Below, one piece after another: positions 6,220 to 64,000 of a stretch of 64,000 nt of DNA. Positions within the stretch are counted from its first letter, which is position 1. Every line of letters starts with the position of its first letter. The stretch is from assembly GCA_964477845.1 (NCBI GenBank), contig CAYZES010000001.1:36426-100425 (forward strand), written 5' to 3'. The translations under genes and the position numbers were made by a program. The stretch is from an uncultured Dehalococcoidia bacterium (lineage in GTDB: Bacteria; Chloroflexota; Dehalococcoidia; Lucifugimonadales; UBA2962). Under the pieces are notes generated by a model. The model had not been told where the DNA came from and searched no databases. It worked only from the letters and a program-made list of their open reading frames with translations.

Positions 6220-6231
6220 CCGGCGGCCGGC

Positions 6232-9120
<2,889 letters not shown>

Positions 9121-9199
9121 CCCGCTGCGGGTCCCGGGATCGGTTTCGATCGTCCCTGGTCGGCTCTGACGGGGCTCATATGCATGGGTCCGGACCAGT

Positions 9200-10494: not shown

Positions 10495-11315
10495 AGCCCG
10501 GCCTCACGCAGGGCCGTGTAGAGGGAGCCCCACTCGGTGAGCGAGAGGGTTTGGGCCCTGCGGCCACCGTCTATGCCGGCCGCCCGAAGAGGGCCCTCGA
10601 CATCACCGGTCGCCGGGCTGAGGCCCTGCCTGAGGGAGTTGCGAAGCTGCTTTCTGCGCGCGGCAAAACCCGCCCTGACCATCCGCAGGAACCTGTCCTC
10701 CGAGTCGATGTCGAGGACCGGCTCGGCGCGGGGGATAAGCGAGACGACCGCCGAGTGCACCCTTGGCCTGGGCCTGAAGGCCGTGGGCGGAACGTTGAAC
10801 AGTCTGCGCGCGCAGGCGCGAAGCTGCACCTCGACCGACAGGTATGTCATTTCACCGGGCGCGGCGGTCATCGAGTCGGCGACCTCGCGCTGCACCATAA
10901 CCACCATCAGCGATGGCCGGCGCTTTGCCGTCAGGAAGCGACGGACGATAGGCGAGGCGACGTTGTACGGAAGGTTGCCGACCATCTTGTAGGGTTGTTC
11001 GGGCCCGGTGATCTGCGAGATGTCGACCGCGAGGGCATCGTCGTTGACGATCGTCACAGCGTCCTCGGCGGAGAATCGCTCGGCCATCGATTGGGCGAGC
11101 AAATCGTCCATCTCTACCGCGATAAGGCGACTTGCCCCCTCGGCCAGCAGGCCCGTAAGGGCGCCCCGGCCGGGGCCTATCTCCACCACGGTGTCCGTTG
11201 CCGAAAGCTCGAGGGCGGCTACGATCCTGCGGGCTGTGCCGCGGTGGTTAAGGAAGTTCTGGCCGAGCGAGCGTTTGGGACGCACGGTCGTCTTTGGACT
11301 GGACGGCGGTCGCAT
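10491..11315 (-). CDS. rsmA: 16S rRNA (adenine1518/1519-N6)-dimethyltransferase
   Basis: SLGQNFL, VVEIGPGRGALT, GNLPYNVASP. The track start (11369) would overlap the 3' helix of the SRP RNA, so I prefer the Met at 11315 (MRPPSSPKTTVRPKRSLGQNFL). Confidence 0.85.
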   Translation of the reverse strand: MRPPSSPKTTVRPKRSLGQNFLNHRGTARRIVAALELSATDTVVEIGPGRGALTGLLAEGASRLIAVEMDDLLAQSMAERFSAEDAVTIVNDDALAVDISQITGPEQPYKMVGNLPYNVASPIVRRFLTAKRRPSLMVVMVQREVADSMTAAPGEMTYLSVEVQLRACARRLFNVPPTAFRPRPRVHSAVVSLIPRAEPVLDIDSEDRFLRMVRAGFAARRKQLRNSLRQGLSPATGDVEGPLRAAGIDGGRRAQTLSLTEWGSLYTALREAGL

Positions 11316-11357
11316 CGGTTGCCGCGCAGTATCGCCGATCTCTCGGAGATGTGTACT

Positions 11358-11650
11358 GCGGCCGTGCACCCCTTGTTCGATCTCCTCCCGAGACTTGACC
11401 GCCGGGGCCGGCTCAAGCCAGGTGGACCCACGGCACCCGAGAGGCCCTGCTTACCGCTGCTTCCTTCCGGACCTGACGGGGTTCACAAGCTCTCGCCGCG
11501 TGGGACCCGGCTCTCAGCACCGGCGTCCGGGGACAGTGGCCTTGGGAGGGGGACCTCCGAGGGGAATTCAGCCCCGCTGGAGCGGATTGCGAGTAGAGGG
11601 CACCGCTAGCTCCCCGCCTAGCACGGCCAAGGCCATGGTAGTCAACCGGT
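11358..11650 (-). ncRNA. ffs: Signal recognition particle RNA, long Bacillus-type with Alu domain
   Basis: Minus strand reads GGCCGTGCTAGGCGGGGAGCTAGCGGTGCCCTCTACTCGCAATCCGCTCCAGCGGGGCTGAATTCCCCTCGGAGG ... GTCAGGTCCGGAAGGAAGCAGCGGTAAGC ... GGTGCACGGCC. It has the universal domain IV motif, an Alu-domain 5' part matching the B. subtilis scRNA as I recall it, and 5' GGCCGTGC pairing with 3' GCACGGCC. Ends are about +/-15 nt. Confidence 0.85.
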
Positions 11651-17040: not shown

Positions 17041-17580
17041 AGCTCTTTTTGCTGCAGGTTGCTACAGCTAGTGGTCTCACCACTGTTCATACTTACACAC
17101 CATGAGTTTACCAGACAACCCCCTGCCAATCTCGTGTTGTTTGGCGCAACAACTAGCCACGAACGGGAGATGGAACCGGTCGTCTTTAGGTTGGAAGACG
17201 AAGACCCTACATTCGCTCGAAGGGGTACAGTATTGGATCTATATGAGAGCCAGTATCACAACAATCAGGCCTGATAATGTTCCTTCTTCTTGCCCGAGTT
17301 CCTTGCCTTGATTTTGAGCCTCAGCGACTTGTTTTTCGGATGATGATATACAGTCGCAATAGGCGATCAGTTACGGCAGGTAATTGGACCGCGGGTCCTG
17401 CCGATCAACGCAGGCATGCGGAGGATTGCTGCTGTGCCGTTGAGTAGGATTCAGCTACATGGCCCTGGACGGGGACCCGAATCCGGCGCATGGGCTAGCG
17501 GGGCGGCTTGACGCAACTCGCCTGACCGGTACATGATCAGCCCGCGTGTCACAGACATCTCCGGGGCGGGAGCATCTGCG

Positions 17581-18984
17581 GTGACCAGCTACGACTATGA
17601 CATGGTCGTGATCGGGTCCGGCCCTGCCGGACAGATGGCGGCCATCCAGGCATCAAGGTTCGGCGGGCGCGTGGCCGTGGTCGAGAAACTCGGGGACGTT
17701 GGCGGCGTGAGCGTCAACACGGGAACCGCGAGCAAGACCCTGCGCGAGGCCGTTCTTCACTTTACCGGCCACCGGGAGCGCAAGGTCTACGGCAGGTCGT
17801 ATTCGGTCAAGCGGAACGTCACTATGGCCGACCTTATGGAAAGGGCCCGGTACGTGATGCGGCAGGAGGTGGATATCCTGCGCGGACGCCTCGCCGCAAG
17901 CAGGGTGGAGATGATAGAGGCCGAGGCCTCGTTCGTGGATCGCCACACCATTCGGCTCCGGGCCGACGGTGGAAGAACGAACCGCACCATCAATATCGAT
18001 AAGGCGGTAATAGCGGTCGGGGCGTTTTCCACCAGGCCACCCGTGGTTCATGCGGACGGGAGGCTCATATTCGTTAGCGACGACGTCCTTAACCTGCCCG
18101 AGTTGCCCCGCAAGCTGACCATCGTCGGGGCCGGATCGATCGGCCTGGAGTACTGTGGCACCTTTGCAACCCTGGGGGTGCGCGTCACGCTGGTGGACAA
18201 GGAGGCGCGGCTGCTGCCTTTCGCCGACAGAGAGATCAGCGACACCCTTGCCTACCACCTTCGCCAGACGGGCGTGACACTGCGCCTGAGCGAAGAGGTT
18301 TTTGACATCGAATACCTCAGGGATGAACTCGGCGACAGGGTGCGCGTGCTTCTTGATAGCGGAAAGCAGATAGTTAGTGATGCCGTAATGTACTGCGTCG
18401 GCAGGACGGGAGCCACCGAGTCGCTGGGGCTCGAGGCGGTGGGCATAATTTCCGATGAACGGGGCCGCCTGAGCGTCGACGACAACTACCAGACCAACGT
18501 AGAGGGCGTCTATGCGGTCGGCGGAGTCATCGGGTTTCCGGACCTTGCCTCGACCTCCAAGCTCCAGGGTCGTCTGGCCGCCTGCCACGCGTTTGGAGTC
18601 CCCTCAAGCGGATTCCCCGCCCTCTACCCGTACACCGTCAAGACCGTGCCCGAGGTGGCGATGGTGGGAAAGACGGAGGACCAGCTCACCGGCGAGGGTG
18701 TTCCCTACGAGGTGGGCAAGGCACTGTACAGGGAAACCATCAGCAGCGTCATACAGGGCGACGACGTCGGCCTCCTTAAGCTGCTGTTCGATCCCGATAC
18801 CCGCAGGCTGCTGGGCGTTCACACGATCGGGGACGGCGCGGCCGAACTGATACACGTCGGGCAGGCCGTGATCGCGCACGGCGGCACGATCGACTACTTC
18901 CTGGAGTCCGTGATCGGTTGTCCCACGCTGGTCGAATGCTATGCGGACGCCGCCATGAACGGCGTGAGCCGACTCACGCCATAG
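17581..18984 (+). CDS. sthA: Soluble pyridine nucleotide transhydrogenase-like flavoprotein
   Basis: VTSYDYDMVVIGSGPAG matches the E. coli SthA N-terminus (SYDYDAIVIGSGPGG). GGVSVNTGTASKTLREA lacks the CxxxxC disulfide, as in SthA. C-terminal CPTLVECYADAAMNG. I prefer GTG 17581 because TTGACG(17508)-N18-CATGAT covers the track start 17533. Confidence 0.8.
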   Translation: MTSYDYDMVVIGSGPAGQMAAIQASRFGGRVAVVEKLGDVGGVSVNTGTASKTLREAVLHFTGHRERKVYGRSYSVKRNVTMADLMERARYVMRQEVDILRGRLAASRVEMIEAEASFVDRHTIRLRADGGRTNRTINIDKAVIAVGAFSTRPPVVHADGRLIFVSDDVLNLPELPRKLTIVGAGSIGLEYCGTFATLGVRVTLVDKEARLLPFADREISDTLAYHLRQTGVTLRLSEEVFDIEYLRDELGDRVRVLLDSGKQIVSDAVMYCVGRTGATESLGLEAVGIISDERGRLSVDDNYQTNVEGVYAVGGVIGFPDLASTSKLQGRLAACHAFGVPSSGFPALYPYTVKTVPEVAMVGKTEDQLTGEGVPYEVGKALYRETISSVIQGDDVGLLKLLFDPDTRRLLGVHTIGDGAAELIHVGQAVIAHGGTIDYFLESVIGCPTLVECYADAAMNGVSRLTP

Positions 18985-50820: not shown

Positions 50821-52515
50821 TCAGCCGGTCACCGCCCCCTCGGCGGCCGAGGAGACGAGCTTGGCGTACTTTGCGAGCACGCCGCGGGTGTACCTCGGGG
50901 CCGGCGGGGTCCAGGCCTCGCGCCTCCGGGAGATCTCTTCTTCGGAAACGCGCATCGACAGCTCGCGGGTCTCGACGTCCATGCTGATCACATCGCCGTC
51001 GCTCAGCAGGGCGATCGGGCCGCCGGTCATTGCCTCCGGCGCTATGTGCCCGATCATCGGTCCCCGCGTTGCGCCCGAGAACCTCCCGTCGGTAAGCAGC
51101 AGCGTCGTCTCCCCGAGGCCGGCCCCCATGATCGCACCGGTCAGGGCCAGCATCTCCTGCATGCCCGGACCGCCTTTGGGTCCCTCATACCGTACGACGA
51201 TCACGTCGCCGTGCCGTATATGCCCGCCGGTGACGGCGTTAAAGGCCCCGCGCTCTGAGTCGAAGACCCGGGCAGGTCCCTCGTGCCGCAGGTGCTTTGT
51301 TCCCGAGACCTTCATCACCGCTCCCTCCGGGGCAAGGTTGCCCTTGAGGATGACCAGGCCGCCGGTGGGGCTTCTCGGGTTGTCTATCGGGTATATGACC
51401 TTGCTGTCGGGCCCTGCGCCGGTCCGCGCGTAGTCGTCGGCGAGGTTCTCGGCGATGGTCCTGCCGGTAACGGTGAGGCACTCGCCGTTGAGGAGGCCGG
51501 CCCTGAGCAGCTCGCGCATCAGCGTTGGCACGCCGCCCGCCTTGTCCATGTCGGGCATCACGTAGCGCCCTCCCGGCCGAAGGTCGGTCAGGTAGGGAGT
51601 CAGCCGGCTGAGACGGTCGAAGTCGTCGATCGACAGTGGAACCTCGGCCTCGGCTGCTATCGCGAGCAGGTGCAGGACGGCATTAGTCGATCCCCCCATC
51701 GACAGCACCACCGTTATGGCGTTCTCGAACGCCTCCCTGGTCATGATGTCTCGCGACTTTATGTCCCGCTCAAGCAGCGCGTGCATCGCCTCTCCCGCGC
51801 TATGCGAGGCCTCGAGGTTTCGCGGGTCGACGGCCGGTATGGATGCCGTGCCCGGCAGTGCCATGCCCAGCGCCTCGATGGCCGAGGACATGGTGTTCGC
51901 GGTGAACATCCCGGAGCAGGCGCCCTCGCCGGGGCAGGCCACCCTCTCCATGGCGATCAGCTCATCCAGGGAGAGATCTCCCTGCGAGTGGGCCCCGACC
52001 GCCTCGAACATGTCCTGGATGTTGATGTCCTTCCCCAGGTAGTTGCCCGCCAGGATCGCCCCTCCGTACACGAAGATCGACGGCACGTTCAGCCTCGCCA
52101 TCGCCATCAGCGCGCCCGGCATGTTCTTGTCGCAGGCCGCGACCACCAAGAGGCCGTCCATGCTCTCACCGAACACGACCGTCTCGATCGAGTCGGCGAT
52201 CACCTCCCTGCTCACCAGGGAGGCCTTCATGCCCTCGGTCCCCATCGAGATGCCGTCGCTGATGGTTATCGTCCCGAACAGGAAGGGAACGGACCCTCCG
52301 GCGCGCACGCCCTCCTTGGTCGCCCTGGCGATCCGGTCGAGGTGCACGTTGCAGGGCGTTACGTCGCTGGCCAGGTTTGCAACCGCGACGAAGGGCTTTT
52401 CGAAGTCCTCGTCCTTAAGGCCCGCGCCCCGCAGCATGGCCCTGGCCGGCGCACGGTCGGCACCGTCCACCTGCACGGCGCTGTGGCGCCTAAGGTTGGT
52501 CTTTGTGATGGTCAT
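50821..52515 (-). CDS. ilvD: Dihydroxy-acid dehydratase
   Basis: [45 protein letters not shown]. 564 aa. Confidence 0.95.
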
Positions 52516-52553: not shown

Positions 52554-53648
52554 TTATATCGCCGCCTCGGCCTCCGCCCTGGCCGCCCTGGCCGCCCTGC
52601 GCTGGGTGATGATGTGATTTGCCACGAATACCAGGCCGCCGATGGCGATCACGCTAAGCAGCGTTATCGATCGGTCGAGCACGGCCACCGAAGCCGCGTC
52701 CGCCTTGGGCATGCTGAGCACGAGCAGCCCGGTCATGCCGGCCTCGACCGCACCTATCCCCCCGGGGGTCGGCACCGTGCTGAGCACGGCGTGCCCCAGT
52801 GAGACGAGCAGCACCATCGGGATCGATAGCGACAGGTCGAGCGCCTGGACCACGAAGTACAGGCGGGCCGCCTCGAGCGCCCACCCGATCACGCTCAGGG
52901 CCGCCAGCAGGGGTAGGTTGCGGGCCTCTATGCTGCCGAGGCTTCCCTGGTGGAACTGGCCGTATATGCGCTCCAGCGCGCTCGGGAGCAGCCGTGCCAG
53001 CCTGAGCCCGAAGAGCCGCATGGCGACGAGCAGCGCAAAGAAGACCGCTGCGGAGCCGGCGGTCGCTATGACCAGGTACCTGAGTATGGTGTTGTCGGTG
53101 GTGACCGTTGCCGCCAGCACCGCGGCCACAATCATCAGCGCCACCGTGGCCATGTCGAGCATCCTCTCGGCCAGCAGCGTGCCGAGACCCCAGTAAAAGC
53201 CGCCCTTGGTGTCCTTGGAAAAAACCCAGGCGCGGTAGGCGTCGCCGAGCCTGAGCCAGGCTATCGTGTTGACGAACCAGCCCATGATGATGAGCTGGGC
53301 GAGGCGCAGCGTCGATGGAAGGCGGATGGAGTCTTCGGGCCTATCGGAGCTCTTGGCGGCGCTGCGCGCCAGCAGCCTCCAGCGGTATCCGCGGAACAGA
53401 AAGCTCAGGTAGTAAAGGGCCAGTGCCAGGACGAAGGGCCAGGGCTTCATCTGGCTGACGTTTTGCCAGGTGTCCGACCAGTCCAGATCGATGCCCGAGG
53501 CCAGGAAGAATATGAACGCCCCCGCCACACCCAGGGAGAGGAGGGTCGGGAGTGAAAATATTCGTCGACGAAGGATCGACGGCAGGTCTGCGCTGGCGCT
53601 CGAGTCCGCTGACGAGAGAACGAGGCCGACGAGTCGGGTTATTCGCAT
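52554..53648 (-). CDS. Flippase-like / lysylphosphatidylglycerol-synthase TM-region family membrane protein
   Basis: About 8 TM spans. [11 protein letters not shown] and [12 protein letters not shown] motifs typical of the TIGR00374-like family. Confidence 0.7.
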
Positions 53649-53663
53649 TGGCCGTGGGCCATT

Positions 53664-54383
53664 CTACAGCGGACGCCTGCCGGGCACTCCCTCGCGCCTG
53701 GGAAAGCGCGCGGGAGTGGGTAAGCGTTTAGGGACCACTACAAGGCGCGCGTCCCTGCCCTCGCCGACTATCGCAGGGTCTACGCTGACGACCCTCGGCT
53801 CCCCCGCGCCGGTGGCACCGAGCGCACGGGCTGCCTTGCCCAGCTCGGCCTCGGCCTCCCTTCCCTTGTAGGCGACCAGCAGGCCGCCGAGCCGGCAGAA
53901 CGGCATCGTGAGCTCGATCAGGGTGGACAGCCCTGCAACGCCCCTTGACACCACGATGTCAAAGCTCTCGCGCACCTGCGGAAGGTGCGCGGCCGTCTCC
54001 GCCCGGTCCCGGATCACCTCGAGGTCGCCCAGCGCCAGTTCGGACCTTAGGCGCCCGAGGAAGCTCGCCTTTTTCCCCGTGGCCTCAAGGAGCGTCACCC
54101 GGCAGCCCGGCAGCGCGATCGCGAGAGCGACCCCGGGCAGCCCCGCACCGGAGCCGACGTCAAGCACGCGCGAGCGGGCGATGATGACCGGATCGACGGC
54201 GGCGGCGATGGTGAGCGAGTCAAGGAAGTGGCGCGTCCTTATCTGGTCCGGGTCGACGATGGCGGTCAGGTTCGCCCGCCGGTTGCCGTCGACGATCAGC
54301 TCAAGGTAGCGCTCGAACGCCTCCACCTGCTCGGTGTCCAGGTGGATCCCGAGTGCCGCCGCGCCCTCGACGAGATCGGTCAG
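53664..54383 (-). CDS. rsmG: 16S rRNA (guanine527-N7)-methyltransferase
   Basis: NLTAIVDPDQIRTRHFLDSL, VLDVGSGAGLPGVALAI, FDIVVSRGVAGL. The only in-frame start that keeps the conserved N-terminus is CTG 54383, overlapping the upstream TGA. Confidence 0.75.
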   Translation of the reverse strand: MTDLVEGAAALGIHLDTEQVEAFERYLELIVDGNRRANLTAIVDPDQIRTRHFLDSLTIAAAVDPVIIARSRVLDVGSGAGLPGVALAIALPGCRVTLLEATGKKASFLGRLRSELALGDLEVIRDRAETAAHLPQVRESFDIVVSRGVAGLSTLIELTMPFCRLGGLLVAYKGREAEAELGKAARALGATGAGEPRVVSVDPAIVGEGRDARLVVVPKRLPTPARFPRREGVPGRRPL

Positions 54384-54991
54384 GGGAGTGCCGCCCCGGA
54401 GCGGGCTGGGGCGCCGGTCCCCCCGCCGGCCGGCGCGAGCGAGCTGACCACGGTGAACAGGTTGATCACAAACATGGGACCGCTCGGGATGTGCAGGGGC
54501 CAGAGCAGCAGGCCCAGCGGACCGACCGCCGAAGCGGCCCAGGCCGTCCTTGCGCCCACCGCGCCGGATCTCCTGAGCCCCAGCCCGTAGATGGTCATGC
54601 CGACCTGCGCGGTGACGATCGCGGGGAACTCTACCGCACCGTAGAAGATCGACTGAAGGGGCGAAAAGCCCACGGTTGACCCGTTCCCGGACCCCGCATA
54701 GTACGAGCCCAGGTCGCCGACCAGCGCAACACCGAGGGCCGCCATGGTGAGCCAGAACGCGCCCCGTACCCAGAGCGTTGACCGGCTCCCGATCCGCCCC
54801 TGAAAGTAGTACAGCCCCGCCATCGCGCCAATGTAGGCTGGGAAAAACAGGCGGCCTGCCAGCAGGTATGCGTCCGACTCGGCGAGCCACGTCGCCATCA
54901 CAAGGGGGGTCAGCACAAGGCCGAATCCCCCACCGGCGAGGGCGAAGATGCGCAGGTAGGACGATGGGATCGGGCCGGGTCCGACGGTCAC
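54380..54991 (-). CDS. Integral membrane protein, unknown function
   Basis: 203 aa with about 6 hydrophobic spans and good GC3 bias. First gene of the minus-strand run ending with ilvD. Confidence 0.55.
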   Translation of the reverse strand: MTVGPGPIPSSYLRIFALAGGGFGLVLTPLVMATWLAESDAYLLAGRLFFPAYIGAMAGLYYFQGRIGSRSTLWVRGAFWLTMAALGVALVGDLGSYYAGSGNGSTVGFSPLQSIFYGAVEFPAIVTAQVGMTIYGLGLRRSGAVGARTAWAASAVGPLGLLLWPLHIPSGPMFVINLFTVVSSLAPAGGGTGAPARSGAALP

Positions 54992-55352: not shown

Positions 55353-56027
55353 ATGACCGGTTCCTTCGCTCGCGAACTCAGGGCCAAGCACGAGCGGGCC
55401 TGGGAGCGGGTGGTCGTCCACCCGTTCGTCCTCGAGCTGGGCGATGGCACCCTGCCGCTCGAAAGGTTCCGCTTCTACTTCGTACAGGACTACATCTTCG
55501 TAAAGGACCTGGTGGCGGTGATGGGCATGGCCATCGCCAAGTCCCCCGACCTGGGCGCGGCAAGCGCGCCGATCAACCGGTTCCTCAGCGGTGTGCTCAA
55601 CCCGGAAAACGACCTTTTCCTCAGGGCGCTTGGGGCACTGGATGCGACCGCCGAGGAGCTCACCGCATCGGTCGCGTCTCCTGCCACGCAGGGCTTTTGC
55701 GACTTTGTCACCCGCGTGGGGCACGAGGGTACGTTCGACGAGATCATCACGGTGCTCTACGTGACCGAGGGGACGTACCTTGAGTGGGCCACCAGGCTGA
55801 TCGAGGCCGGCAGGGTGCCCGACGACGGGTTCTACCGGGAGTGGATTGACCTGCACGGGCCCGCCGCGCTCGCCGAGATAGTCGGCTGGATGGGCGCTCA
55901 CCTGGACTCGATCGCACCCGGGGACCGGTCACCGCGAACCGACTGGCTGGTGCGCACCGCGCTCGCCTACGAGCTGATGTTCTGGGAGCAGGCCCACACT
56001 GGTGCGGGCTCGCAGTGGCCCGCGTGA
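55353..56027 (+). CDS. tenA: TenA-family aminopyrimidine aminohydrolase (thiaminase II)
   Basis: HPFVLELGDGTLPLERFRFYFVQDYIFV, and the ATQGFCDFV region. 224 aa. Confidence 0.85.
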   Translation: MTGSFARELRAKHERAWERVVVHPFVLELGDGTLPLERFRFYFVQDYIFVKDLVAVMGMAIAKSPDLGAASAPINRFLSGVLNPENDLFLRALGALDATAEELTASVASPATQGFCDFVTRVGHEGTFDEIITVLYVTEGTYLEWATRLIEAGRVPDDGFYREWIDLHGPAALAEIVGWMGAHLDSIAPGDRSPRTDWLVRTALAYELMFWEQAHTGAGSQWPA

Positions 56028-56833
56028 GCAGGCCGCGCATCCTGACCGTTGCCGGCTCGGACTCCGGCGGGGGCGCCGGGATACAGGCGGACCTTAAGAC
56101 ATTCGCGGCCCTCGGCGCCTACGGCACCTCGGCCATAACCGCCGTGACCGCACAGAACACGCTGGGGGTAACCGATGTCCTGGAGGTGGGTCCGGCCACG
56201 GTCCGTGCCCAGATCGATGCGGTCATGGACGACATCGGCGCCGACGCCGCCAAGACGGGGATGCTCTTTAGCGCGGAGATCATCGAGGAGGTGGCCAGCG
56301 GACTGCGGCGCCACGGGGTCGGCCGGCTGGTCGTCGACCCGGTGATGGTGGCGACCAGCGGGGCGAGGCTGCTCAGACAGGACGCCGAGGAGGCGCTGGT
56401 CCGCCTTCTGGTCCCGGCGGCCAGCCTGATCACACCCAATTTACAGGAGGCCGCAGTACTCGTCGGCCGGCCGATAGAGACGATCGACGAGGTGCGGGAG
56501 GCCGCGCGGGAGATAGCCGGGCTGGGCGCGCGCGCCGTGGTGATAACCGGGGGGCCGGACGGCGGTCCGGCGACGGATGTCCTGCTGGCGGGAGGTGAGA
56601 TGGAGATCTTTGCCGGGGAGCGGATCGAGACCCTGAGCACGCACGGGACCGGCTGCACCTTCTCGGCGGCGGCGGCGGTCGGCCTTGCCAGGGGCCTGCG
56701 GACGAGAGATGCGGTGGCGATGGCCAAGCGCTACGTCGCCTCCGCCATACGCGCTGCCTACCCGGTAGGGTCCGGGCACGGTCCGGTGGACCATTTCCAC
56801 GGGCTGGCCGGGGGCGGCGCGGGCCAGCAGTAA
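56015..56833 (+). CDS. thiD: Hydroxymethylpyrimidine/phosphomethylpyrimidine kinase
   Basis: ILTVAGSDSGGGAGIQADLKT, TPNLQEA, THGTGCTFSAA. The start may be GTG 56024 (GTGA overlap with the tenA stop). Confidence 0.9.
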   Translation: MARVSRPRILTVAGSDSGGGAGIQADLKTFAALGAYGTSAITAVTAQNTLGVTDVLEVGPATVRAQIDAVMDDIGADAAKTGMLFSAEIIEEVASGLRRHGVGRLVVDPVMVATSGARLLRQDAEEALVRLLVPAASLITPNLQEAAVLVGRPIETIDEVREAAREIAGLGARAVVITGGPDGGPATDVLLAGGEMEIFAGERIETLSTHGTGCTFSAAAAVGLARGLRTRDAVAMAKRYVASAIRAAYPVGSGHGPVDHFHGLAGGGAGQQ

Positions 56834-57143: not shown

Positions 57144-57824
57144 GTGATGCAGATGGTCACGCGGCCGGGAGCCCTGGTAGTCCAGGCGCGTCCCTGGGCG
57201 CTGCTCGGAAAGCCCGGTCCCTCCCTGCTCGAGGCCCTCTACCCGGGAATCAACTCCACCCACAAACTGGCCGTCTCCCTGGCGCTGGTGGGCGTGCTGG
57301 TGGGGCTTGCCAGGGCGCGGTTCTTTTTACCGGATAACCCCGTCCCCATCACGTTCCAGACCTTCGGGGTGCTGATGATCGGCGGTGTGCTCGGCTGGCG
57401 CTGGGGCCTTTTCTCGATACTCGTGTATTACTTTTTGGGCATGGCCGGCGTTCCCGTATTCCAGGGCGGCGGCAACGGCTGGGCATACACCGGCGAGGGG
57501 GTAACCGGGGGCTACCTGATCGGCTTCATAGCCTCGGCGTGGCTGGTCGGCTACCTCTCGCAGCGCGGATGGAACCGCGGCAGGTCGATGTGGACGATGG
57601 TCCTGGCGATGCTTGTGGTCTACCTGCCGGCACTGCTGTGGCTCCGCTACGGGGGCTTTTCATGGCCGGCCGAGGGGGAGCTGTTCTCCGCCGGGATGTA
57701 CCCGTTCATACCCGGCGACCTCGTAAAGGCGATGCTGGCGTCCGTGGCCGTGGGCTTCGGATGGAAGATGGCCGATCGCCGGTCGGCCGAGCGTGAGTCA
57801 GGGGCCGAACCGGGCGACGGGTAG
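57144..57824 (+). CDS. bioY: Biotin transporter BioY
   Basis: PVPITFQTFGVLMIGGVLGWRWG, GAGYL-like GGYLIGFIASAW, FIPGDLVKA. Confidence 0.85.
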   Translation: MMQMVTRPGALVVQARPWALLGKPGPSLLEALYPGINSTHKLAVSLALVGVLVGLARARFFLPDNPVPITFQTFGVLMIGGVLGWRWGLFSILVYYFLGMAGVPVFQGGGNGWAYTGEGVTGGYLIGFIASAWLVGYLSQRGWNRGRSMWTMVLAMLVVYLPALLWLRYGGFSWPAEGELFSAGMYPFIPGDLVKAMLASVAVGFGWKMADRRSAERESGAEPGDG

Positions 57825-57892: not shown

Positions 57893-58246
57893 TTGACGGC
57901 ACCGGGAATCGAAACGGCATCCTCGCTGAGGCGGCTCGTAGCCGTCTTGCTCGACTTCGTGCTCATCCCTCTGACGCTCTTCATCGGATACATCATCTGG
58001 TGGCTCATCGTCCTCGGGCGAGGACAGACGCCCGGCAAGCAGATCGTCGCCATCAGGGCCGTGCGTCGAAGCGGCGAGCCTACGAGCTGGGGCCTTATGT
58101 TCGTGCGCGAGGTCCTAAAGTGGCTGCTTCACGGCCTTGGGCTGCTGGGCCTGGTCGCCGATGGGATAGTGCTGCTGATGGACGAGAAGGAGCGCCGGTC
58201 CATCATCGACCGCATCGTGGAAACGAGGGTGGTCTACGCCGATTGA
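57893..58246 (+). CDS. RDD-family membrane protein
   Basis: RRLVAVLLDFVLI ... GQTPGKQIVAIRAV. Confidence 0.7.
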   Translation: MTAPGIETASSLRRLVAVLLDFVLIPLTLFIGYIIWWLIVLGRGQTPGKQIVAIRAVRRSGEPTSWGLMFVREVLKWLLHGLGLLGLVADGIVLLMDEKERRSIIDRIVETRVVYAD

Positions 58247-58283: not shown

Positions 58284-59159
58284 CTAGCCTCCGACCAGCG
58301 TCAGGCGGCGGTCCAGGTCGTTCCAGGGGATCATGGCGTCCACCCAGCTGCCCAGGCGGTTGAGGTAGACGTTGGCGGCGTCAAGGATCTCCTTTAGCTC
58401 ATCCGTGGATGCCGCGGCCTCGGCAGCCCCGGCAGCCTGGCGGATCAGGGTAGACGCTCCCTCAAAGCCCCACTTTGACAGGCGGTGGTCGGTGCGGAGC
58501 AGGTAGGCTGCCGCCACCCTGCCCGCCTGGGCGGCGGGCATCTCGTCGGCCAGCTCCCGGGCGACGTGCAGGTTCTCAGTGCCCCAGAACAGATCGAAGT
58601 TCGAGTAGACCACGCACGGAAGGTTGCCCATCGGGGGCCGGGTGTGGGTACGCATGGCGGCCACGTCGGCGGGCTCGGTCTCCCAGATCTCGGAGGTCGC
58701 CGCGCGCAGCGCGTCTGCGGCCGCGTTTCCCGCCGGCGCCGGCGCCGGCCCGGTCGCAGCCCCTGATGCGTCTCCCATGTTGATCGAGACCGGGAGCGTG
58801 CCGGCCTCAAGGATGCGCCTGCCGGCCGCGACCGCCCTGGGAAGGTCCTCGGGGACGACCCGGGCGAACAGGTTTATGTAGCCGAAGGGCATGATCTCCC
58901 CGTAGAAAAGGCACAGGGTCTGGCTGCGCGGATAGTAGCCGATGTCCCCGGGGGCCACGGAGGGCACCTGGTTCTCCCCCGGGGGCGCGTAAAACGGGAG
59001 CATGGCTATCGTCTCGTCCCCCGCGAACTTGGCGTTTACGCCGAAAGTGCTCGTCGGCATCGCCCGCTCGAACGCCGCGCACGTCTCCGGCGCCTCGCCG
59101 GTGAGCAGGACGGCCCTGACGGTCTCACCGGCCATGTGTATCTCGAATATCTTGTCCAT
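58284..59159 (-). CDS. Cyclophilin-like-fold (DUF3830-like) N-domain protein with an extra C-terminal domain
   Basis: MDKIFEIHMAGETVRAVLLTGEAPETCAAFERAMP ... PGDIGYYPRSQTLCLFYGE resembles the cyclophilin-like/DUF3830 pattern as I recall it. The C-terminal 140 aa are unassigned. Last gene of the split GltS-like cluster. Confidence 0.45.
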   Translation of the reverse strand: MDKIFEIHMAGETVRAVLLTGEAPETCAAFERAMPTSTFGVNAKFAGDETIAMLPFYAPPGENQVPSVAPGDIGYYPRSQTLCLFYGEIMPFGYINLFARVVPEDLPRAVAAGRRILEAGTLPVSINMGDASGAATGPAPAPAGNAAADALRAATSEIWETEPADVAAMRTHTRPPMGNLPCVVYSNFDLFWGTENLHVARELADEMPAAQAGRVAAAYLLRTDHRLSKWGFEGASTLIRQAAGAAEAAASTDELKEILDAANVYLNRLGSWVDAMIPWNDLDRRLTLVGG

Positions 59160-59243
59160 CGGGTAGGTCGCTCCTGTGGTGGCTGAGGTAGCCGTTCGCC
59201 GGCGCGGGGCCGTGCGGCGGCCGGGGCGAGGCCCCGGTCCCTT

Positions 59244-60581
59244 CTAGTAGACCTTGTTCGAGCCTACCAGGGGCACGCCGCTCATGGCCGAGGCATCCAC
59301 CGTAAGGGCCCGCAGGTCCTCGGGCTCCAGGTTGTGGATGTCGCGCTTTCCGCAGGCGCGCGCAAGCAGCTGGATCTCCAGGGTCAGGGCATTTAGGTAG
59401 TTGAACACCCGGTCGGCCGCCTCGTCCGGGTCCAGCCTGGCCTCCAGGTCCGGGTCCTGCGTGGTGATGCCGACCGGGCACAGCCCGGTGTGGCAGTGGT
59501 GGCAGGCGCCGGGACTGGTGCCCAGCCGCTCGTAGTCCTCCGTGTAGATGGCCTTGTTGCAGTTAAGTGCGATCAGCGCCGCGGTGCCGATCGACACGCC
59601 CTTGGCACCCAGGGCCAGCGCCTTGGCCATGTCCGCGCCGCTGGACAGCCCGCCCGAGACGACCAGGTCGACCTCTTCCTCAAGCCCGAGGTCCTGAAGG
59701 GCGCGTACCGCCTCGGCGGTTGCCGGCATGGTCGGTATTCCGGTGTGATCGAGCTGCAGCTCCGGGGAGGCGCCCGTACCGGCCTCCATGCCGTCTATGA
59801 CGATGACGTCGGCGCCGACCTTTGCGGCGAGTTTCACATCGTCCGTCACCCGTCCCGCGCCCAGCTTTATGAAAAGCGGAACGCGCCCCTCGGTGACCTC
59901 CCTTAGCTCCTCCATCTTTATCATCAGATCGTCCGCACCCATCCAGTCGGGATGGCGGACGGGGCTGCGCTGGTCGACGCCCGGGGGCAGCTCGCGCTGG
60001 TTGGCGATGACCTCCGAGACCTTGAGGCCCAGCAGCAGCCCTCCCGTCCCCGGCTTTGCGCCCTGGCCGATGACGATCTCGAGTGCATCGGCGGCGCGCA
60101 CGTGGTCGGGGTTGAAGCCGTAGCGGCTGGGAAGGACCTGGTACATGAGCATGCGCGAGGCCTCGCGCTCGGCAAGCAGCATTCCGCCGTCGCCTGTAAC
60201 CGTCATGGTGCCCATGCGTGTGGCGGCCCTGCCCAGGGCCACCTTGGCGCTCGCCGAGAGCGCCCCGAAGCTCATGCCCGATATGTAGATGGGCGTCTCC
60301 ATCCTCAGGGGCTCGGATGCGTGCCTTGCGCCGAGCACGGTCTCGGTGCTGCACTTTTCCCGGTAGCCCTCAAGGGGCACGCGGCTCATGCCGGAGGTTA
60401 TGAACGTCAGGTCGTCGAACGAGGGGAGGCGCCGTAGGGTGCCGAAGCCGCGGATCCGGTAGCGGCCAAGCTCGGCCTTGGCCTGAATGTCCTCGACCAC
60501 CTCGGGGCCGTAGAAAAAGCTCTCGCGGATGAGAGGCCTTGCGTCCTCCGATCCGCCGTTCGCCGATCCGCCGCCTGTCAC
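59244..60581 (-). CDS. FMN-binding glutamate-synthase-family protein (GltB central-domain homolog)
   Basis: GTG 60581 lies 7 nt after AAGGGAGGA. ISGMSFGALS, GQGAKPGTGG, IDGMEAGTGASP, and a C-terminal Cys cluster CHHCHTGLCPVG. Confidence 0.85.
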   Translation of the reverse strand: MTGGGSANGGSEDARPLIRESFFYGPEVVEDIQAKAELGRYRIRGFGTLRRLPSFDDLTFITSGMSRVPLEGYREKCSTETVLGARHASEPLRMETPIYISGMSFGALSASAKVALGRAATRMGTMTVTGDGGMLLAEREASRMLMYQVLPSRYGFNPDHVRAADALEIVIGQGAKPGTGGLLLGLKVSEVIANQRELPPGVDQRSPVRHPDWMGADDLMIKMEELREVTEGRVPLFIKLGAGRVTDDVKLAAKVGADVIVIDGMEAGTGASPELQLDHTGIPTMPATAEAVRALQDLGLEEEVDLVVSGGLSSGADMAKALALGAKGVSIGTAALIALNCNKAIYTEDYERLGTSPGACHHCHTGLCPVGITTQDPDLEARLDPDEAADRVFNYLNALTLEIQLLARACGKRDIHNLEPEDLRALTVDASAMSGVPLVGSNKVY

Positions 60582-60603
60582 GTTGCCGTCCTCCCTTTGC
60601 AGA

Positions 60604-61299
60604 TCACAGTGCGGTCCGCCAGAGCCGAAAGTCTCGCTTGTTGAAGTTGTAGAGGCGCTTGTCCGAGACGATCTTGCGGAACTCGGCGGCCTCGGGTGCC
60701 CCGGCCACCTGGTAGCGGCCAAGCAGCTCGGTAAGCTCGGCCGCGTCCTGCTCGCCAAGGTCGTCGAACTTGGCGCCGTTGCCGAAGTCCGCGACCCGGC
60801 CGCGCACGAACATGCGTCCCTCGTATATCGAGTCGGCGAATGCCTCCCCGGTGTCCCCGCACACGATCATCACGCCCCTCTGGTTGACGAAGCCCGACAT
60901 GTAGTCGACGGACCCGCCGATCACGATCGCCCCGCCCTTCTGGGAGATGCCGGTGCGGGGGCCCGTGTTGCCGTGGACCACCAGGGTGCCGCCCCTTATC
61001 GCCGCGCCGGCGGCCGCGCTGGCGTTGCCCCGGACCACGACGCTGCCGGACTGCATGTCGGAGGCGACCGACCAGCCGGCGTTCCCGGTGACCTCTATGT
61101 CGGCCAGCTTGAGCATGCCGCCGCAGTAGTAGCCGACGTTGCCGTCTATGGTCACCCTGCCGGGCTGGTTGAGCCCGACCGCCAGGTTGTGGCGGGACTC
61201 GGAGTTGGTGACCAGCACCTCCCCGTCGGCCGTCAGGCCGGCGCGTATGGCGGTGTTAACCTCCCGGAGGCTCAGGCCCCTGGCGTCTACCGATGCCAC
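60604..61299 (-). CDS. GXGXG-motif protein (GltB C-terminal-domain / FwdC-like beta-helix)
   Basis: Repeated GNxG turns: DGNVGYYCGG, VTGNAGWSVASDMQSGSVVVRGNASAAAGAAIRGGTLVVHGNTGPRTG. Confidence 0.85.
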   Translation of the reverse strand: MASVDARGLSLREVNTAIRAGLTADGEVLVTNSESRHNLAVGLNQPGRVTIDGNVGYYCGGMLKLADIEVTGNAGWSVASDMQSGSVVVRGNASAAAGAAIRGGTLVVHGNTGPRTGISQKGGAIVIGGSVDYMSGFVNQRGVMIVCGDTGEAFADSIYEGRMFVRGRVADFGNGAKFDDLGEQDAAELTELLGRYQVAGAPEAAEFRKIVSDKRLYNFNKRDFRLWRTAL

Positions 61300-62219
61300 G
61301 TGCTCACGGCCCTCGCGGTCGGTTCGTAGACGCGGGTCTCGCTCGTTATCAGGTGCCCGAGGGCCACCTCTTCCGAGGCCATCGCGACAAAGCCCTCGTC
61401 CTCTGCGACGACCAGGGGCTTTGTGGAAAACCGGTCCTTGGCAAAGCCGATCCCGTCCCGCGTGGTCACAAGGTAGGTGAACGTGCCGTCCAGCCCCTCG
61501 ATCGAGTCGGTCAGCGCCTCCTCGAGCGTGGCGCCCGCCCGCAGGCGGTCGGCGATGAACACCGATATCACCTCCGAGTCGTTGGTGGTGAGGAACTCAT
61601 AGCCGCGCCTCTGCAGCGAGCGGCGCAGGTTGTTGTGGTTGGTCAGCTGCCCGTTGTGCACGACGGCGATGTCGGGGAACGGCCTCGCCCAGAAGGGGTG
61701 CGAATAGCAGATGTTGACGATGCTCTCGGTGGCCAGCCTGGTGTGGGCCAGCCCGTGGGTGCCCTCGAAGCCGGCCGCGTCGTAGACGGCCATCTCATCG
61801 GCCGGGCCCACGTCCTTTACGATCTCCATCGCATTGCCGAGGCTCAGGACCTCGGCCCCGGTCGACTCGACCGCGTGCGTGATGCCCATCATCTGCTCGA
61901 GGTCCGCCGCATCGGGGACGTCGCTGATCTCGATGCGGGCTATGTTGCCCGTGTACCTGACGCCGGCCACGGAGGCGACCTCGCCCACCCGCTCTCGTAT
62001 CTCCGAGAGCCTGGCCTCGGCGCCCGCGCTGTTGGCCGGGCGGTCCCTCCTGAGGTGGACCCTGAGGGCAAGGTGTCCGGCGGGCAGGCCGCCGTAGAGC
62101 GCGAGGCCGGTCGAATCCAGACCCCGGCTCCCGAGGACCGTGGCCATGTCGGTAAGGCACCTGCCCAGAGGCGCCTGTCCACCGCCGTTCTTGAACATGA
62201 AACCGGCTATGCCGCACAT
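61287..62219 (-). CDS. Class II (Ntn) glutamine amidotransferase (GltB N-terminal-domain homolog)
   Basis: ATG 62219 gives MCGIAGF (Cys1 nucleophile). HTRLATES, VVHNGQLTN. SD GAAGGAGAG upstream. Confidence 0.85.
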   Translation of the reverse strand: MCGIAGFMFKNGGGQAPLGRCLTDMATVLGSRGLDSTGLALYGGLPAGHLALRVHLRRDRPANSAGAEARLSEIRERVGEVASVAGVRYTGNIARIEISDVPDAADLEQMMGITHAVESTGAEVLSLGNAMEIVKDVGPADEMAVYDAAGFEGTHGLAHTRLATESIVNICYSHPFWARPFPDIAVVHNGQLTNHNNLRRSLQRRGYEFLTTNDSEVISVFIADRLRAGATLEEALTDSIEGLDGTFTYLVTTRDGIGFAKDRFSTKPLVVAEDEGFVAMASEEVALGHLITSETRVYEPTARAVSTWHR

Positions 62220-62270
62220 GGATTTCGCTCTCCTTCTGGCCCGGACGGGCTCGAAAGGCACTAATCAGGC

Positions 62271-62299
62271 AGTCTATGACCGTGGGCGGGGCCAGTCAA
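62271..62299 (-). promoter_or_regulatory. Promoter candidate TTGACT-N17-TAGACT for the GltS-like cluster
   Basis: Minus strand: TTGACT (62299-62294), 17-nt spacer, TAGACT (62276-62271), about 50 nt upstream of ATG 62219. Confidence 0.5.
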
Positions 62300-62392: not shown

Positions 62393-63631
62393 TTGGCGGC
62401 ATTGGCCGGCGTTCTGACCCGAATAAGGACGTTCAGGTCCTTTCGATACGGTGATTTCCGTCTACTGTGGGTCGCCAGCATTGGCACCTCCGGCGGATTC
62501 TTCTTCCAGCAGGTGCTCATCGGCTGGCTCACCTACGACCTGACCCAGTCGGCCTTCCTTACCAGCATCGCCCTCGGGCTCGACACGCTCCCGAACCTGC
62601 TCGCAGCGCCGCTCGGAGGGGTCCTGGTAGATAACCTGGACCGGCGAAAGGTGCTGGCCATCGTTCCGGCCTACCAGTGCACGCTGAGCGTGGCGTTCGG
62701 CCTTGTGATCCTGCTCGGGCTCATCGAGCCCTGGCACATCTTCGTATTCGTCCTGCTAATGGGCTTTTCCTGGGTGATCATCGAGCCGGCGCGCATGGCC
62801 ATCATCCCCGGGATCGTTGGAGAGGCCAGGCTGGTCAACGCCTTCTCGCTGGTGCAGCTGGCGTTCAGCACGACGAGGATGCTGGGTCCGCTCGTGGGCG
62901 GGATCGCGCTGGCGAGCATGGGGCCTGCTGCGGCCGTGTTCGTTGCGGCGGGCTCACAGTTCGTGGCGATGCTCATGGGCTCTATGATCCGCACGAGAAA
63001 CCAGGCCCAGTCCAGGGTCACCTTCTGGACCGCGCTGTCCGGACTCGCCGGCTCGTTCCGCCTGGTCAGGGACACCCCGATCGTTCAGGCGATGCTGCTG
63101 ATGGCGCTGATCGGTCCGCTGGTTGTCGTCCCGTTCTCGAGCGGACTGATGCCGGTGTTCGCGGCCGAGGTCTACGAGGTCGGCCCCGCCCGGCTCGGGG
63201 CGCTCCTGGCCCTGATCGGGGCGGGGTCGATGGTAGGCACGATAGTCCTGGCCTCCATGGGAGAGATCCCGCGAAAGGGGTACGCCGTGATGGCGGGCGT
63301 GCTCCTCGCCGCGGTTGGTCTGGTGCTGATGGCGGTCGCGCCCTCCTTCTCCGTCGCGGTGGTGGCCGCGCTGGTGGTGGGGATGGGCTTTACGAGCGCC
63401 CAGACGCTGGTGTCCTCGCTCCTGCAGAGGGTGGTGCCCAGCGATTACCGGGGGCGAATCTCCGGCATCTGGATGATGACCTGGGGAACGGTGGTGGGCG
63501 GAGGCCTTGTGGCCGGCGCCCTTGCGGGCCCCCTGGGTGCGCCCCTGGCCGCGCTGGCGGGCGCGGGCATGGCCGCCGTCGCGGTGGTGGCGGTCATCGC
63601 CTCCTACCGGCCCGTGCGTGGGCTGGTGTAG
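62393..63631 (+). CDS. MFS transporter
   Basis: 412 aa, about 12 TM spans. FRLLWVASIGTSGGFFFQQV and DNLDRRKVL motifs. Confidence 0.85.
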   Translation: MAALAGVLTRIRTFRSFRYGDFRLLWVASIGTSGGFFFQQVLIGWLTYDLTQSAFLTSIALGLDTLPNLLAAPLGGVLVDNLDRRKVLAIVPAYQCTLSVAFGLVILLGLIEPWHIFVFVLLMGFSWVIIEPARMAIIPGIVGEARLVNAFSLVQLAFSTTRMLGPLVGGIALASMGPAAAVFVAAGSQFVAMLMGSMIRTRNQAQSRVTFWTALSGLAGSFRLVRDTPIVQAMLLMALIGPLVVVPFSSGLMPVFAAEVYEVGPARLGALLALIGAGSMVGTIVLASMGEIPRKGYAVMAGVLLAAVGLVLMAVAPSFSVAVVAALVVGMGFTSAQTLVSSLLQRVVPSDYRGRISGIWMMTWGTVVGGGLVAGALAGPLGAPLAALAGAGMAAVAVVAVIASYRPVRGLV

Positions 63632-63718: not shown

Positions 63719-64000
63719 CTAGTAGATCTCCAGGTACTCGCTCTTTTCCCAGTCGGTTATGTGAGCGCGGAAGCGGGCGAGCTCATGACGTCTCATCACG
63801 GTGTAGACGCTGACGAACTCCTCGCCCAGCATTTCGGCGAACTCGCGGTCGGCCTCAAGGGCCGCAAGAGACTCCTCGAGCGTGGCGGGCAGCTTGGTGT
63901 ACTGGGGATCGTCCTCGACCGGACCGGCCGTGGGGTCGGGCGTGACAGCGGGGACACCCTTCTCAAGTCCCAGCAGGCCGGTGGCCAGGACGCCGGCGAC
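63719..64000 (-). CDS. Glutamine-synthetase-family protein, C-terminal 93 codons only
   Basis: My translation of the minus strand: ...LPATLEESLAALEADREFAEMLGEEFVSVYTVMRRHELARFRAHITDWEKSEYLEIY*. It resembles the GS C-terminus (B. subtilis GlnA ends ...VHPWEREQYMSQY). Confidence 0.7.
   Translation of the reverse strand, partial: VAGVLATGLLGLEKGVPAVTPDPTAGPVEDDPQYTKLPATLEESLAALEADREFAEMLGEEFVSVYTVMRRHELARFRAHITDWEKSEYLEIY

Follow-up and report, generated by a model that had tools for sequence, protein, structure and literature searches.

A conserved glutamate synthase-like operon in an uncultured Dehalococcoidia bacterium and its possible role in glutamate-mediated amine uptake

The DNA analysed here, in the following called the window, is a stretch of 64 kb from an uncultured marine Dehalococcoidia bacterium of the SAR202 type (contig CAYZES010000001.1), and all searches in this genome were confined to it. 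Close to its end, the window carries a four-gene operon on the minus strand, A-B-C-D, in which three subunits corresponding to domains of the glutamate synthase (GOGAT) protein GltB are followed by a rare two-domain protein, D. With moderate confidence we regard this operon as half of a conserved pathway, as yet uncharacterised, in which an organic primary amine is taken up via glutamate conjugates and which would parallel the N-methylglutamate (NMG) pathway with other partner enzymes. Glutamate-mediated amine catabolism itself is already known; what is new here is the variant partner set. The genes and motifs concerned are the following.

62271..62299, minus strand: sigma-70-like promoter motif TTGACT-N17-TAGACT, 5′ of gene A, matching the consensus at 9 of 12 positions
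61287..62219, minus strand: gene A, 310 amino acids (aa), class-II (Ntn) glutamine-amidotransferase-like subunit (Pfam GATase_6 4e-18, GATase_7 1e-16)
60604..61299, minus strand: gene B, 231 aa, GXGXG beta-helix subunit (Pfam PF01493, 5.5e-12)
59244..60581, minus strand: gene C, 445 aa, FMN-binding glutamate-synthase-type subunit (Pfam Glu_synthase PF01645, 9e-96)
59475..59504, minus strand: C-x2-C-x4-C-P motif (CHHCHTGLCP) in C, aligned to the [3Fe-4S] cysteines of GltB
58284..59159, minus strand: gene D, 291 aa, two domains (Pfam DUF3830 5e-11 and Cyclophil_like 1.6e-7 in the N-domain)
62393..63631, plus strand: divergent MFS_3-type transporter gene, 412 aa (Pfam MFS_3, 3e-40)
63719..64000, minus strand: 3′ end of a glutamine synthetase (GS)-like ligase gene, 93 codons plus stop, ending ...WEKSEYLEIY before the stop codon, cut by the window end

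The original prediction had placed four open reading frames (ORFs) with the domains of A, B and C at these positions, and both the ORF check and the Pfam searches bear this out. The promoter-like motif that it had listed is present and is the sole such site in 4.5 kb (one observed against 0.3 expected from shuffles). Protein A begins with MCGIAG, the catalytic Cys following right after the initiator Met, and its ATG at 62219 is preceded by GGAG, a ribosome-binding site. The start of B and the end of A overlap by 13 nt. A, B, C and D each pass no NCBIfam model. The GS-family gene that had been announced at a distance of 1.5 kb was found there, on the far side of the MFS gene, its C-terminus of 93 aa running off the window end. 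Two terminator-like matches (58929-58911 and 60535-60520) were dropped because they lie inside D and C, and 1.7 such matches are expected by chance.

The D family is rare: 443 members were found at E <= 1e-3 and 161 at E <= 1e-10 among 1.84 billion representative proteins, and an index of 5.8 billion proteins contains 49 clusters at 90% identity. Scanning one genome per GTDB species gave 118 D loci, all of them in uncultured metagenome-assembled genomes (MAGs) of Dehalococcoidia/SAR202, Alphaproteobacteria, Gaiellales/Thermoleophilia/other Actinomycetota, Vicinamibacterales, Desulfobacterales and Desulfovirgula. Linkage was counted by mapping the window proteins onto 81 non-redundant D loci, within 10 kb, with ORFs in high-GC loci called using GC3 weighting. 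C is located near D in 61 of the 81 loci and the complete set A+B+C in 57; among the D loci without C nearby, at least ten contigs end close to D. D adjoins A-B-C in Chloroflexota, Alphaproteobacteria, Actinomycetota and one Desulfovirgula MAG, and altogether the operon is conserved in at least five bacterial lineages. The fourth gene, which might have been a chance neighbour, thus shows conserved linkage. The gene order is PTE-ligase-MFS(-)-A-B-C-D in window-type clusters, ligase-ZnADH-A-B-C-D-GFO/MocA-PTE(-) in deeper Dehalococcoidia and A-B-C ... D in Actinomycetota; in Alphaproteobacteria it is Dn-Dc-A-B-C-ligase, D being split into two genes.

The closest known counterpart of A-B-C is found in the NMG pathway (GmaS, MgsABC, MgdABCD; for instance in Methylobacterium extorquens DM4), which likewise has three separate GltB-domain subunits in the order amidotransferase-GXGXG-FMN and an adjacent GS-family ligase without an ammonium site. 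The same gene order is seen in the clusters of Paracoccus, Methylobacterium, Rhizobium and Acinetobacter, so that the predicted MgsABC-like organisation as three separate polypeptides agrees with known clusters. A plasmid collection yielded 448 records with a C homologue. The proteobacterial FMN subunits (MgsC) on plasmids of Methylobacterium, Paracoccus, Rhizobium, Sinorhizobium and Acinetobacter are 55-59.5% identical to C and belong to classic glnT(gmaS)-mgsABC clusters, of which those of Rhizobium phaseoli and Methylobacterium bullatum additionally encode sarcosine-oxidase-like mgd genes. A is 34-43% identical to MgsA of glnT-linked clusters and B 42-46% to MgsB-type proteins. C shares 30-36% identity with stand-alone GltS-like proteins and 33% with the FMN domain of E. 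coli GltB, to which A and B scarcely align. By identities and trees, the subunits are nearer to the MgsABC type than to GltB. The neighbour-joining tree unites the D-linked C proteins of Chloroflexota, Actinomycetota and Alphaproteobacteria (100/100 bootstraps) and keeps the proteobacterial glnT-linked MgsC proteins apart in a clade of their own (100/100). Since the alphaproteobacterial D-linked C proteins fall into the D clade and not with proteobacterial MgsC, the grouping follows the partner and not the taxonomy.

The strongest argument for a role of D in the pathway comes from the partner genes. Many relatives of C are 66-70% identical to the window's C, and their contexts are of two types. 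In the Dormibacteraeota-like loci L100-L102, the order is A-B-C-SoxD-SoxA-SoxG-SoxB plus a permease, and the ligase is 42-46% identical to GmaS with the GmaS signature A/A/W at the ammonium-site positions. The other type is represented by L099 (Ktedonobacteraceae), with A-B-C ... DAO-Dn-Dc-ligase(Y/T/F)-permease, and by L103, with A-B-C ... DAO-Dn-Dc-BMC-AldDH-EutN-EutN (5416-11559; BMC, bacterial microcompartment shell gene; AldDH, aldehyde dehydrogenase); the D-linked DAO flavoprotein is 25-28% identical to SoxB. Related synthases are thus paired either with the four-subunit NMG dehydrogenase and GmaS or with D (with or without DAO) and a new ligase, and the two sets are mutually exclusive. 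D occupies the place in the gene order that the heterotetrameric NMG dehydrogenase (SoxDAGB-like) has in the sister clusters. This exchange of Sox for D on close A-B-C sets argues that D replaces Mgd, working either after the synthase or jointly with it, and it suggests that the amine differs from methylamine. DAO was rejected as a universal partner of D, because it is missing from the window, from the Dehalococcoidia loci and from most alphaproteobacterial loci.

Some A-B-C sets outside the D loci deserve mention. L100 (7398-18863), L101 and L102 have the compact arrangement CN_hydrolase(-)/A-B-C-SoxD-SoxA-SoxG-SoxB, accompanied by a permease for amino acids and a ligase of the GmaS type, which looks like a complete NMG pathway in a single block outside the Proteobacteria. 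In L098 (7299-15351), C is 69% identical to the window's C, no D or ligase is present within 9 kb, and the genes after A-B-C encode a HicB antitoxin, acetate kinase and an integrase of the phage type; a mobile element may have broken up this cluster.

The similarity to MgsABC would also be expected if the window encoded an ordinary NMG pathway for methylamine, with A-B-C as NMG synthase, the ligase as a divergent GmaS, D as an accessory or passenger and mgdABCD elsewhere in the genome. Methylamines are common in seawater. In addition to the identity of C to MgsC of glnT/mgd-linked clusters, the placement of the Sox-linked terrabacterial clusters L100-L102 beside the window's Chloroflexota D-linked clade in the tree fits this explanation. 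Annotation pipelines label C relatives generically or as MgsC, and JGI names those at 74-76% identity 'methylamine---glutamate N-methyltransferase subunit C'. A gene resembling that for dimethylformamidase near alphaproteobacterial D clusters would also agree with it. We consider this explanation unlikely, though it deserves to be taken seriously. The tblastn searches with Methylobacterium and L100 Sox/Mgd proteins found no Mgd/Sox genes in the 64-kb window, mgdABCD gave no match in any Dehalococcoidia locus either, and Mgd/SoxA/D/G were absent within 10 kb of all 81 D loci; DAO is likewise missing from the window. The linkage of D extends across phyla, D and SoxDAGB take each other's place, and the ligase, described next, does not resemble GmaS closely.

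Properties of the ligase were read from its orthologues, which are 446 aa long in full (L001 4131-5471, L002 4243-5583). On TIGR03105, the model for type-III GS/GmaS, the orthologues of L001, L002 and L005 score 266-267 bits against a cut-off of 469.6, whereas GlnT of Paracoccus reaches 641 bits; the scores are 249 bits on the GlnA model (cut-off 429) and 237 bits on the PuuA model (cut-off 650). Across three phyla, the D-linked ligases are 46-77% identical to each other and 27-33% identical to GlnA, PuuA and GmaS (30-33% to GmaS). The ligases of seven D-linked clusters (L001, L002, L005, L040, L076, L039 and L041) were aligned to E. coli GlnA. All seven retain the metal, ATP and glutamate residues E129, E131, E212, E220, H269, H271, R321, R339, R344, E357 and R359. 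At the ammonium site, all seven have Y instead of D50, T/A/V instead of S53 and F instead of E327, and this pattern extends to the total of eight linked ligases that were compared. The corresponding signature is A/A/W in GmaS and P/V/Y in PuuA. According to these residue patterns, the D-linked ligases form a distinct subfamily of predicted gamma-glutamyl-amine-type ligases, which argues against plain GS/GOGAT as well as against canonical GmaS.

Ligases of the GS type without an ammonium site are also a feature of the gamma-glutamylation pathways for putrescine (Puu), polyamines and ethanolamine (GlnA3/GlnA4) and isopropylamine (Ipu). A further likeness is that relatives of the window cluster in Actinomycetota and Ktedonobacteraceae link a DAO-type flavoprotein and an aldehyde dehydrogenase, comparable to PuuB and PuuC. 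In those pathways, however, the glutamyl group is removed by a class-I amidotransferase-type hydrolase (PuuD), and they contain neither a GltS-like A-B-C nor an McbB-fold protein.

The three GltB-type domains together with an adjacent GS-family gene could also represent plain ammonium assimilation, in which A-B-C would be a split ferredoxin-type GOGAT working with a neighbouring glutamine synthetase and D would be unrelated. GltBD and ferredoxin-GOGAT share with A-B-C the Ntn amidotransferase, FMN and GXGXG domains, the cysteines C-x(n)-C-x4-C that align with the [3Fe-4S] site and the presumed chemistry, in which an amine adds to 2-oxoglutarate and FMN-dependent reduction follows. Here, though, the domains are on three polypeptides without the central domain, and C reaches 147 bits on the GltB model NF008730 with a cut-off of 1047. 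Lacking D50, S53 and E327, the partner ligase is predicted to be unable to bind ammonium as GS does. A GltD homologue has no match in related loci, and in the window there is a single weak, generic match (20% identity, E 7e-5, 17575-18582), in agreement with the predicted absence of a GltD-like subunit. Homologous clusters also occur in catabolic settings, with microcompartments, dimethylformamidase-like genes, DAO and permeases. We therefore judge ammonium assimilation to be very improbable. The weak GltD-like match is contained in a 483-aa ORF (17533-18984) 40 kb away, which probably encodes a generic pyridine-nucleotide-disulfide oxidoreductase. That the cluster is a variant processing amines or gamma-glutamyl compounds, as had been proposed instead of plain GOGAT, is supported by the closeness of the subunits to the MgsABC type rather than to GltB and by the loss of the ammonium-binding residues. 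As a refinement, the sequences indicate that the system is not a canonical MgsABC/GmaS/Mgd system either.

C differs from its proteobacterial relatives in the iron-sulfur cysteines. The CHHCHTGLCP motif aligns with C1102, C1108 and C1113 of GltB, and C probably carries a [3Fe-4S] cluster. The CCC triad is present in 58 of 58 D-linked C proteins, in L098-L100 and in L087 from Burkholderia; in five of six proteobacterial glnT-linked MgsC proteins it is replaced by Y/W/D. In L086, L088, L089, L096 and L097, the MgsC motif before GITTQ contains none of the three GltB-type cysteines (AYDDWHEGKDPAG). The triad was considered as a marker specific for D-linked proteins and rejected, since Sox-linked L100, L098 and L087 have it too. 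The pattern suggests for the window enzyme an ability that proteobacterial NMG synthase would lack, namely to pass electrons to or from a partner. Ferredoxin may be this partner. The redox cofactors used by NMG synthase are stated to be not known (PMC6237917), a question on which the cysteines retained here and lost in proteobacterial MgsC bear. In two actinomycete loci, the gene immediately 5′ of A encodes an electron transfer flavoprotein (ETF)-ubiquinone oxidoreductase (L076 210-1955, L069 11-1720). This protein is a possible electron outlet for DAO or for a C subunit containing the Fe-S cluster.

An AlphaFold model of D, built on 31 homologues (pLDDT 89.9, pTM 0.88), has a beta-barrel (residues 1-128) that a disordered linker joins to a helical bundle (146-285). 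In a Foldseek search against the PDB, McbB (3x27) matched D over its full length (TM 0.80/0.75, E 5e-14, 18% identity, about 310 columns); the further matches were the single-domain cyclophilin-like proteins TM1367, AF2241 and 3kop as well as domain-swapped KslB. With the D-family profile, 3x27 is again the top PDB sequence (E 8.6e-9), and its two aligned stretches are collinear across both domains. On the predicted structure, D is a full-length structural homologue of McbB of the cucumopine-synthase family. The cyclophilin-like/DUF3830 assignment of the N-domain thus stands, while the C-domain, which the original prediction had left unassigned, can now be described as the helical bundle of the McbB/cucumopine-synthase fold; its match to Cucumopine_C (0.0022) is below the Pfam threshold.

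McbB, KslB and the Agrobacterium cucumopine/mikimopine synthases condense an amino group with an aldehyde or 2-oxoglutarate via an iminium, KslB and the cucumopine synthases using 2-oxoglutarate, and the catalytic Glu is E97 in McbB and E274 in KslB (PMC12012969). These enzymes (Cyclophil_like2 plus Cucumopine_C) share with D the order of beta-barrel and helical bundle, and the homology is significant at the profile level; D is, however, at most 18% identical to them. In a profile alignment anchored on YG, the D family has a nearly invariant Pro (Pro91, YGEIMPF) where the McbB/KslB motif YGxxxE has its catalytic Glu. This Glu is present in McbB, in the T-DNA synthase-like gene of pRi1724 and in the DUF3830 protein of pRi1724. 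D has the fold without the defining catalytic Glu and is therefore not classed as a Pictet-Spenglerase. It has invariant residues of its own: K44, E49, D72, Y75, Y76, C83, W159, E162, R170, PPMGNxPC (175-182), R226, R268 and W279. The three arginines would suit a di- or tricarboxylate ligand.

The fold raises the question of a biosynthetic cluster, in which D would be a Pictet-Spenglerase or opine synthase for a 2-oxoglutarate-derived alkaloid or opine-like product, A-B-C would deliver the amine or alter it, and the product would leave the cell through the MFS protein. The MFS_3 gene resembles exporters such as EntS, and the N-domain of D is 27% identical to the mikimopine-synthase-like T-DNA gene of pRi1724. 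Against this stand the Pro in place of the Glu that McbB, KslB, the T-DNA synthase and the pRi DUF3830 protein conserve, and the lack of other linked biosynthetic genes. The context of D is catabolic and not one of secondary metabolism or T-DNA: in other lineages D is found among aldehyde dehydrogenase, PTAC, acetate kinase, permeases and shell proteins. We hold a biosynthetic role to be highly improbable.

In the plasmid collection, D-like sequences were found on two R. rhizogenes Ri plasmids only; they were rejected as orthologues and kept as references. On pRi1724 (L104, 6082-7049 and 8040-8966), a 308-aa protein with cucumopine/mikimopine-synthase architecture is encoded beside RolB-family genes and is presumably a T-DNA opine synthase. 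Close to it, the plasmid encodes a split pair consisting of a 139-aa DUF3830 protein, which keeps the YGxxxE Glu, and a 181-aa Dc-like protein. The pair adjoins an amino-acid/opine-type ABC transporter and a hydantoinase/oxoprolinase gene, and may be the catabolic counterpart of the T-DNA synthase. To our knowledge, the characterised relatives of the D-like family (DUF3830 plus Cucumopine_C-like) make only opines and beta-carbolines. DUF3830 was not mentioned in the full-text literature searched.

In other phyla, D is part of microcompartment loci. Of the 81 loci, 24 have D flanked by BMC-H and BMC-P shell genes, with an aldehyde dehydrogenase gene adjacent to it; these are Actinomycetota/Thermoleophilia, Desulfovirgula and Desulfobacterales MAGs, in which D is usually split into Dn and Dc. 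They often also contain PTAC, acetate kinase, LDH, DAO or RidA. The order is A-B-C-Dn-Dc-BMC-H-PTAC-BMC-P-AldDH-PduS-like-BMC-T-acetate kinase-LUD in Desulfovirgula and ETF-QO-A-B-C-x-x-DAO-Dn-Dc-ligase-BMC-H-BMC-H-AldDH-BMC-P-LDH in Actinomycetota (ETF-QO, ETF-ubiquinone oxidoreductase). A-B-C is missing from some loci of actinomycetes and Desulfobacterales in which D is accompanied by shell, AldDH and RidA-like genes; among these, the actinomycete loci add a Zn-type alcohol dehydrogenase (Zn-ADH) and L078 (Desulfobacterales) adds DAO. Examples of the microcompartment-type loci are L076 (8534-15352), L069, L084 (3498-10767), L103, L033-L036, L039 and L078. Many of their Dc proteins carry N-terminal amphipathic helices of the encapsulation-peptide type (for example MNEEQIKQIVLQALAEL and MADELTARIVDLVAKALAE). 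Together these loci look like a microcompartment type with D among its signature cargo. The Pfam families concerned are not mentioned in the portions of the microcompartment catalogue consulted (text and supplements; PMC8217296, Sutter et al.), and no BMC type named there matched. The packaging of D with acylating AldDH, PTAC and acetate kinase fits aldehydes of two or more carbons and not formaldehyde, which again speaks against methylamine as the substrate. Shell and AldDH genes gave no match in the window or in any chloroflexotal or alphaproteobacterial D locus of the 81, so the pathway would be cytoplasmic here.

Helix-bearing Dc proteins include P0046-P0048, P0058, P0063 and P0067 and those encoded at L076 10320-11240 and L069 about 10350-11240. 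The helix is followed by a Pro/Ala-rich linker, often by a 'VTPLARD' domain of about 45 aa without a Pfam match, and by C-x2-C-x2-C before the helical bundle. The window's D has no N-terminal helix, Pro/Ala linker, 'VTPLARD' domain or C-x2-C-x2-C.

From the gene content, the homologies, the fold of D, the residue patterns and the linkage across phyla we infer a substrate class, an order of reactions and a role for D as follows. The NMG logic, amine to gamma-glutamyl amide to N-substituted glutamate, can be transferred to the first three steps, which follow from homology with GS-like ligases and GltS/MgsABC (PMC6237917). First, the GS-like ligase would use ATP to join the amine to glutamate, giving a gamma-glutamyl amide, as its catalytic residues are intact and its ammonium site is lost. 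Second, A would free the amine through its Ntn amidotransferase activity and hand it to C, B serving as the structural beta-helix; this is proposed because of the homology with GltS and MgsABC. Third, C, with FMN and the probable [3Fe-4S] cluster, would combine 2-oxoglutarate and the amine to an N-substituted 2-iminoglutarate and reduce it to the N-substituted glutamate. Fourth, D might make, bind or resolve the 2-oxoglutarate-amine iminium or the N-substituted glutamate, and fifth, glutamate and an aldehyde would probably be released. Steps four and five are suggested by the proteins that share the fold, by the exchange of Sox for D and by the occurrence of D in microcompartment loci; an aldehyde product is proposed because D is located in aldehyde-processing microcompartment loci. 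The specific role of D is held with clearly less confidence than the pathway as a whole.

The neighbouring genes give hints to the substrate. PTE-type hydrolase, Zn-ADH, GFO/MocA oxidoreductase, FGGY-kinase-like (sugar kinase) and aldolase-like genes recur in D loci, the kinase and aldolase assignments being read from N-terminal sequences only, and they hint at an amino alcohol or amino polyol. The alphaproteobacterial D-A-B-C-ligase clusters adjoin a gene resembling that for the large subunit of N,N-dimethylformamidase (PF20254, 4e-97; L040 13307-15928, L052 4794-7424, L030 and L044), and a conserved ORF of about 100 aa and a polyamine-type ABC transporter are encoded nearby in the same four clusters. 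The dimethylformamidase-like gene suggests that in these bacteria the amine is released from an amide.

Several points weigh against the proposed amine pathway. All catalytic steps proposed for this clade rest on homology. Of the ligase, no more than the C-terminal 93 residues are encoded in the window, and the trees are neighbour-joining trees with few reference sequences. D occurs without A-B-C in L034-L036 and L039 (Actinomycetes), L037 (Vicinamibacterales) and L073/L078 (Desulfobacterales), and A-B-C without D in L098, so that the two are separable. Window-type clusters contain no DAO or other obvious N-alkylglutamate oxidase, which leaves the aldehyde-forming step unaccounted for. Finally, owing to the missing Glu, the chemistry of D may be unrelated to iminium handling, or D may be a non-catalytic partner.

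Taking the amine pathway further, one may tentatively propose that the D family and the Y/T/F ligase define a new glutamate-mediated amine-catabolic route, in which D, alone or with the DAO flavoprotein, replaces the four-subunit NMG dehydrogenase and frees an aldehyde larger than formaldehyde. D would then also be signature cargo of a microcompartment type of Actinomycetota, the Desulfovirgula MAG and Desulfobacterales MAGs for which we found no description. If this is true, SAR202 would be able to draw on a part of the marine dissolved organic nitrogen that has so far gone unrecognised. Little is known about what the SAR202/Dehalococcoidia, abundant in the deep ocean, consume; a self-contained and conserved operon for an amine would indicate one particular class of dissolved organic nitrogen. 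Automatic labels such as 'methylamine-glutamate N-methyltransferase subunit C' assign methylamine use too readily; close A-B-C sets are found with either of two partner sets that exclude each other. The operon also gives a first functional context for the rare DUF3830 plus Cucumopine_C-like family and flags it as encapsulated cargo of microcompartments without an assigned substrate. The combination of MgsABC-type genes with D was not found in the literature searched.

The closest loci are in Dehalococcoidia MAGs, with D identities of 96% in L006 and 90-92% in several complete chromosomes; SAR202 MAGs are next, with 60-63%. The MFS_3 gene is kept at the same position in close Dehalococcoidia/SAR202 relatives. 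3′ of D, Pfam and synteny with L001 and L002 identify the following genes.

57893-58246: RDD-family protein
57144-57824: BioY
56015-56833: ThiD-like kinase
55353-56027: TenA
53664-54890: RsmG/GidB-like protein
52554-53648: LPG-synthase-TM-like protein
50821-52515: IlvD

All of these are ordinary housekeeping genes; those from BioY to IlvD are syntenic with L001 and L002, and the RDD gene is missing from this position in both loci. The gap between ligase and MFS gene is about 90-120 bp in the window and in L007; in L006 (4071-5533), about 1.4 kb of additional DNA separates the two genes.

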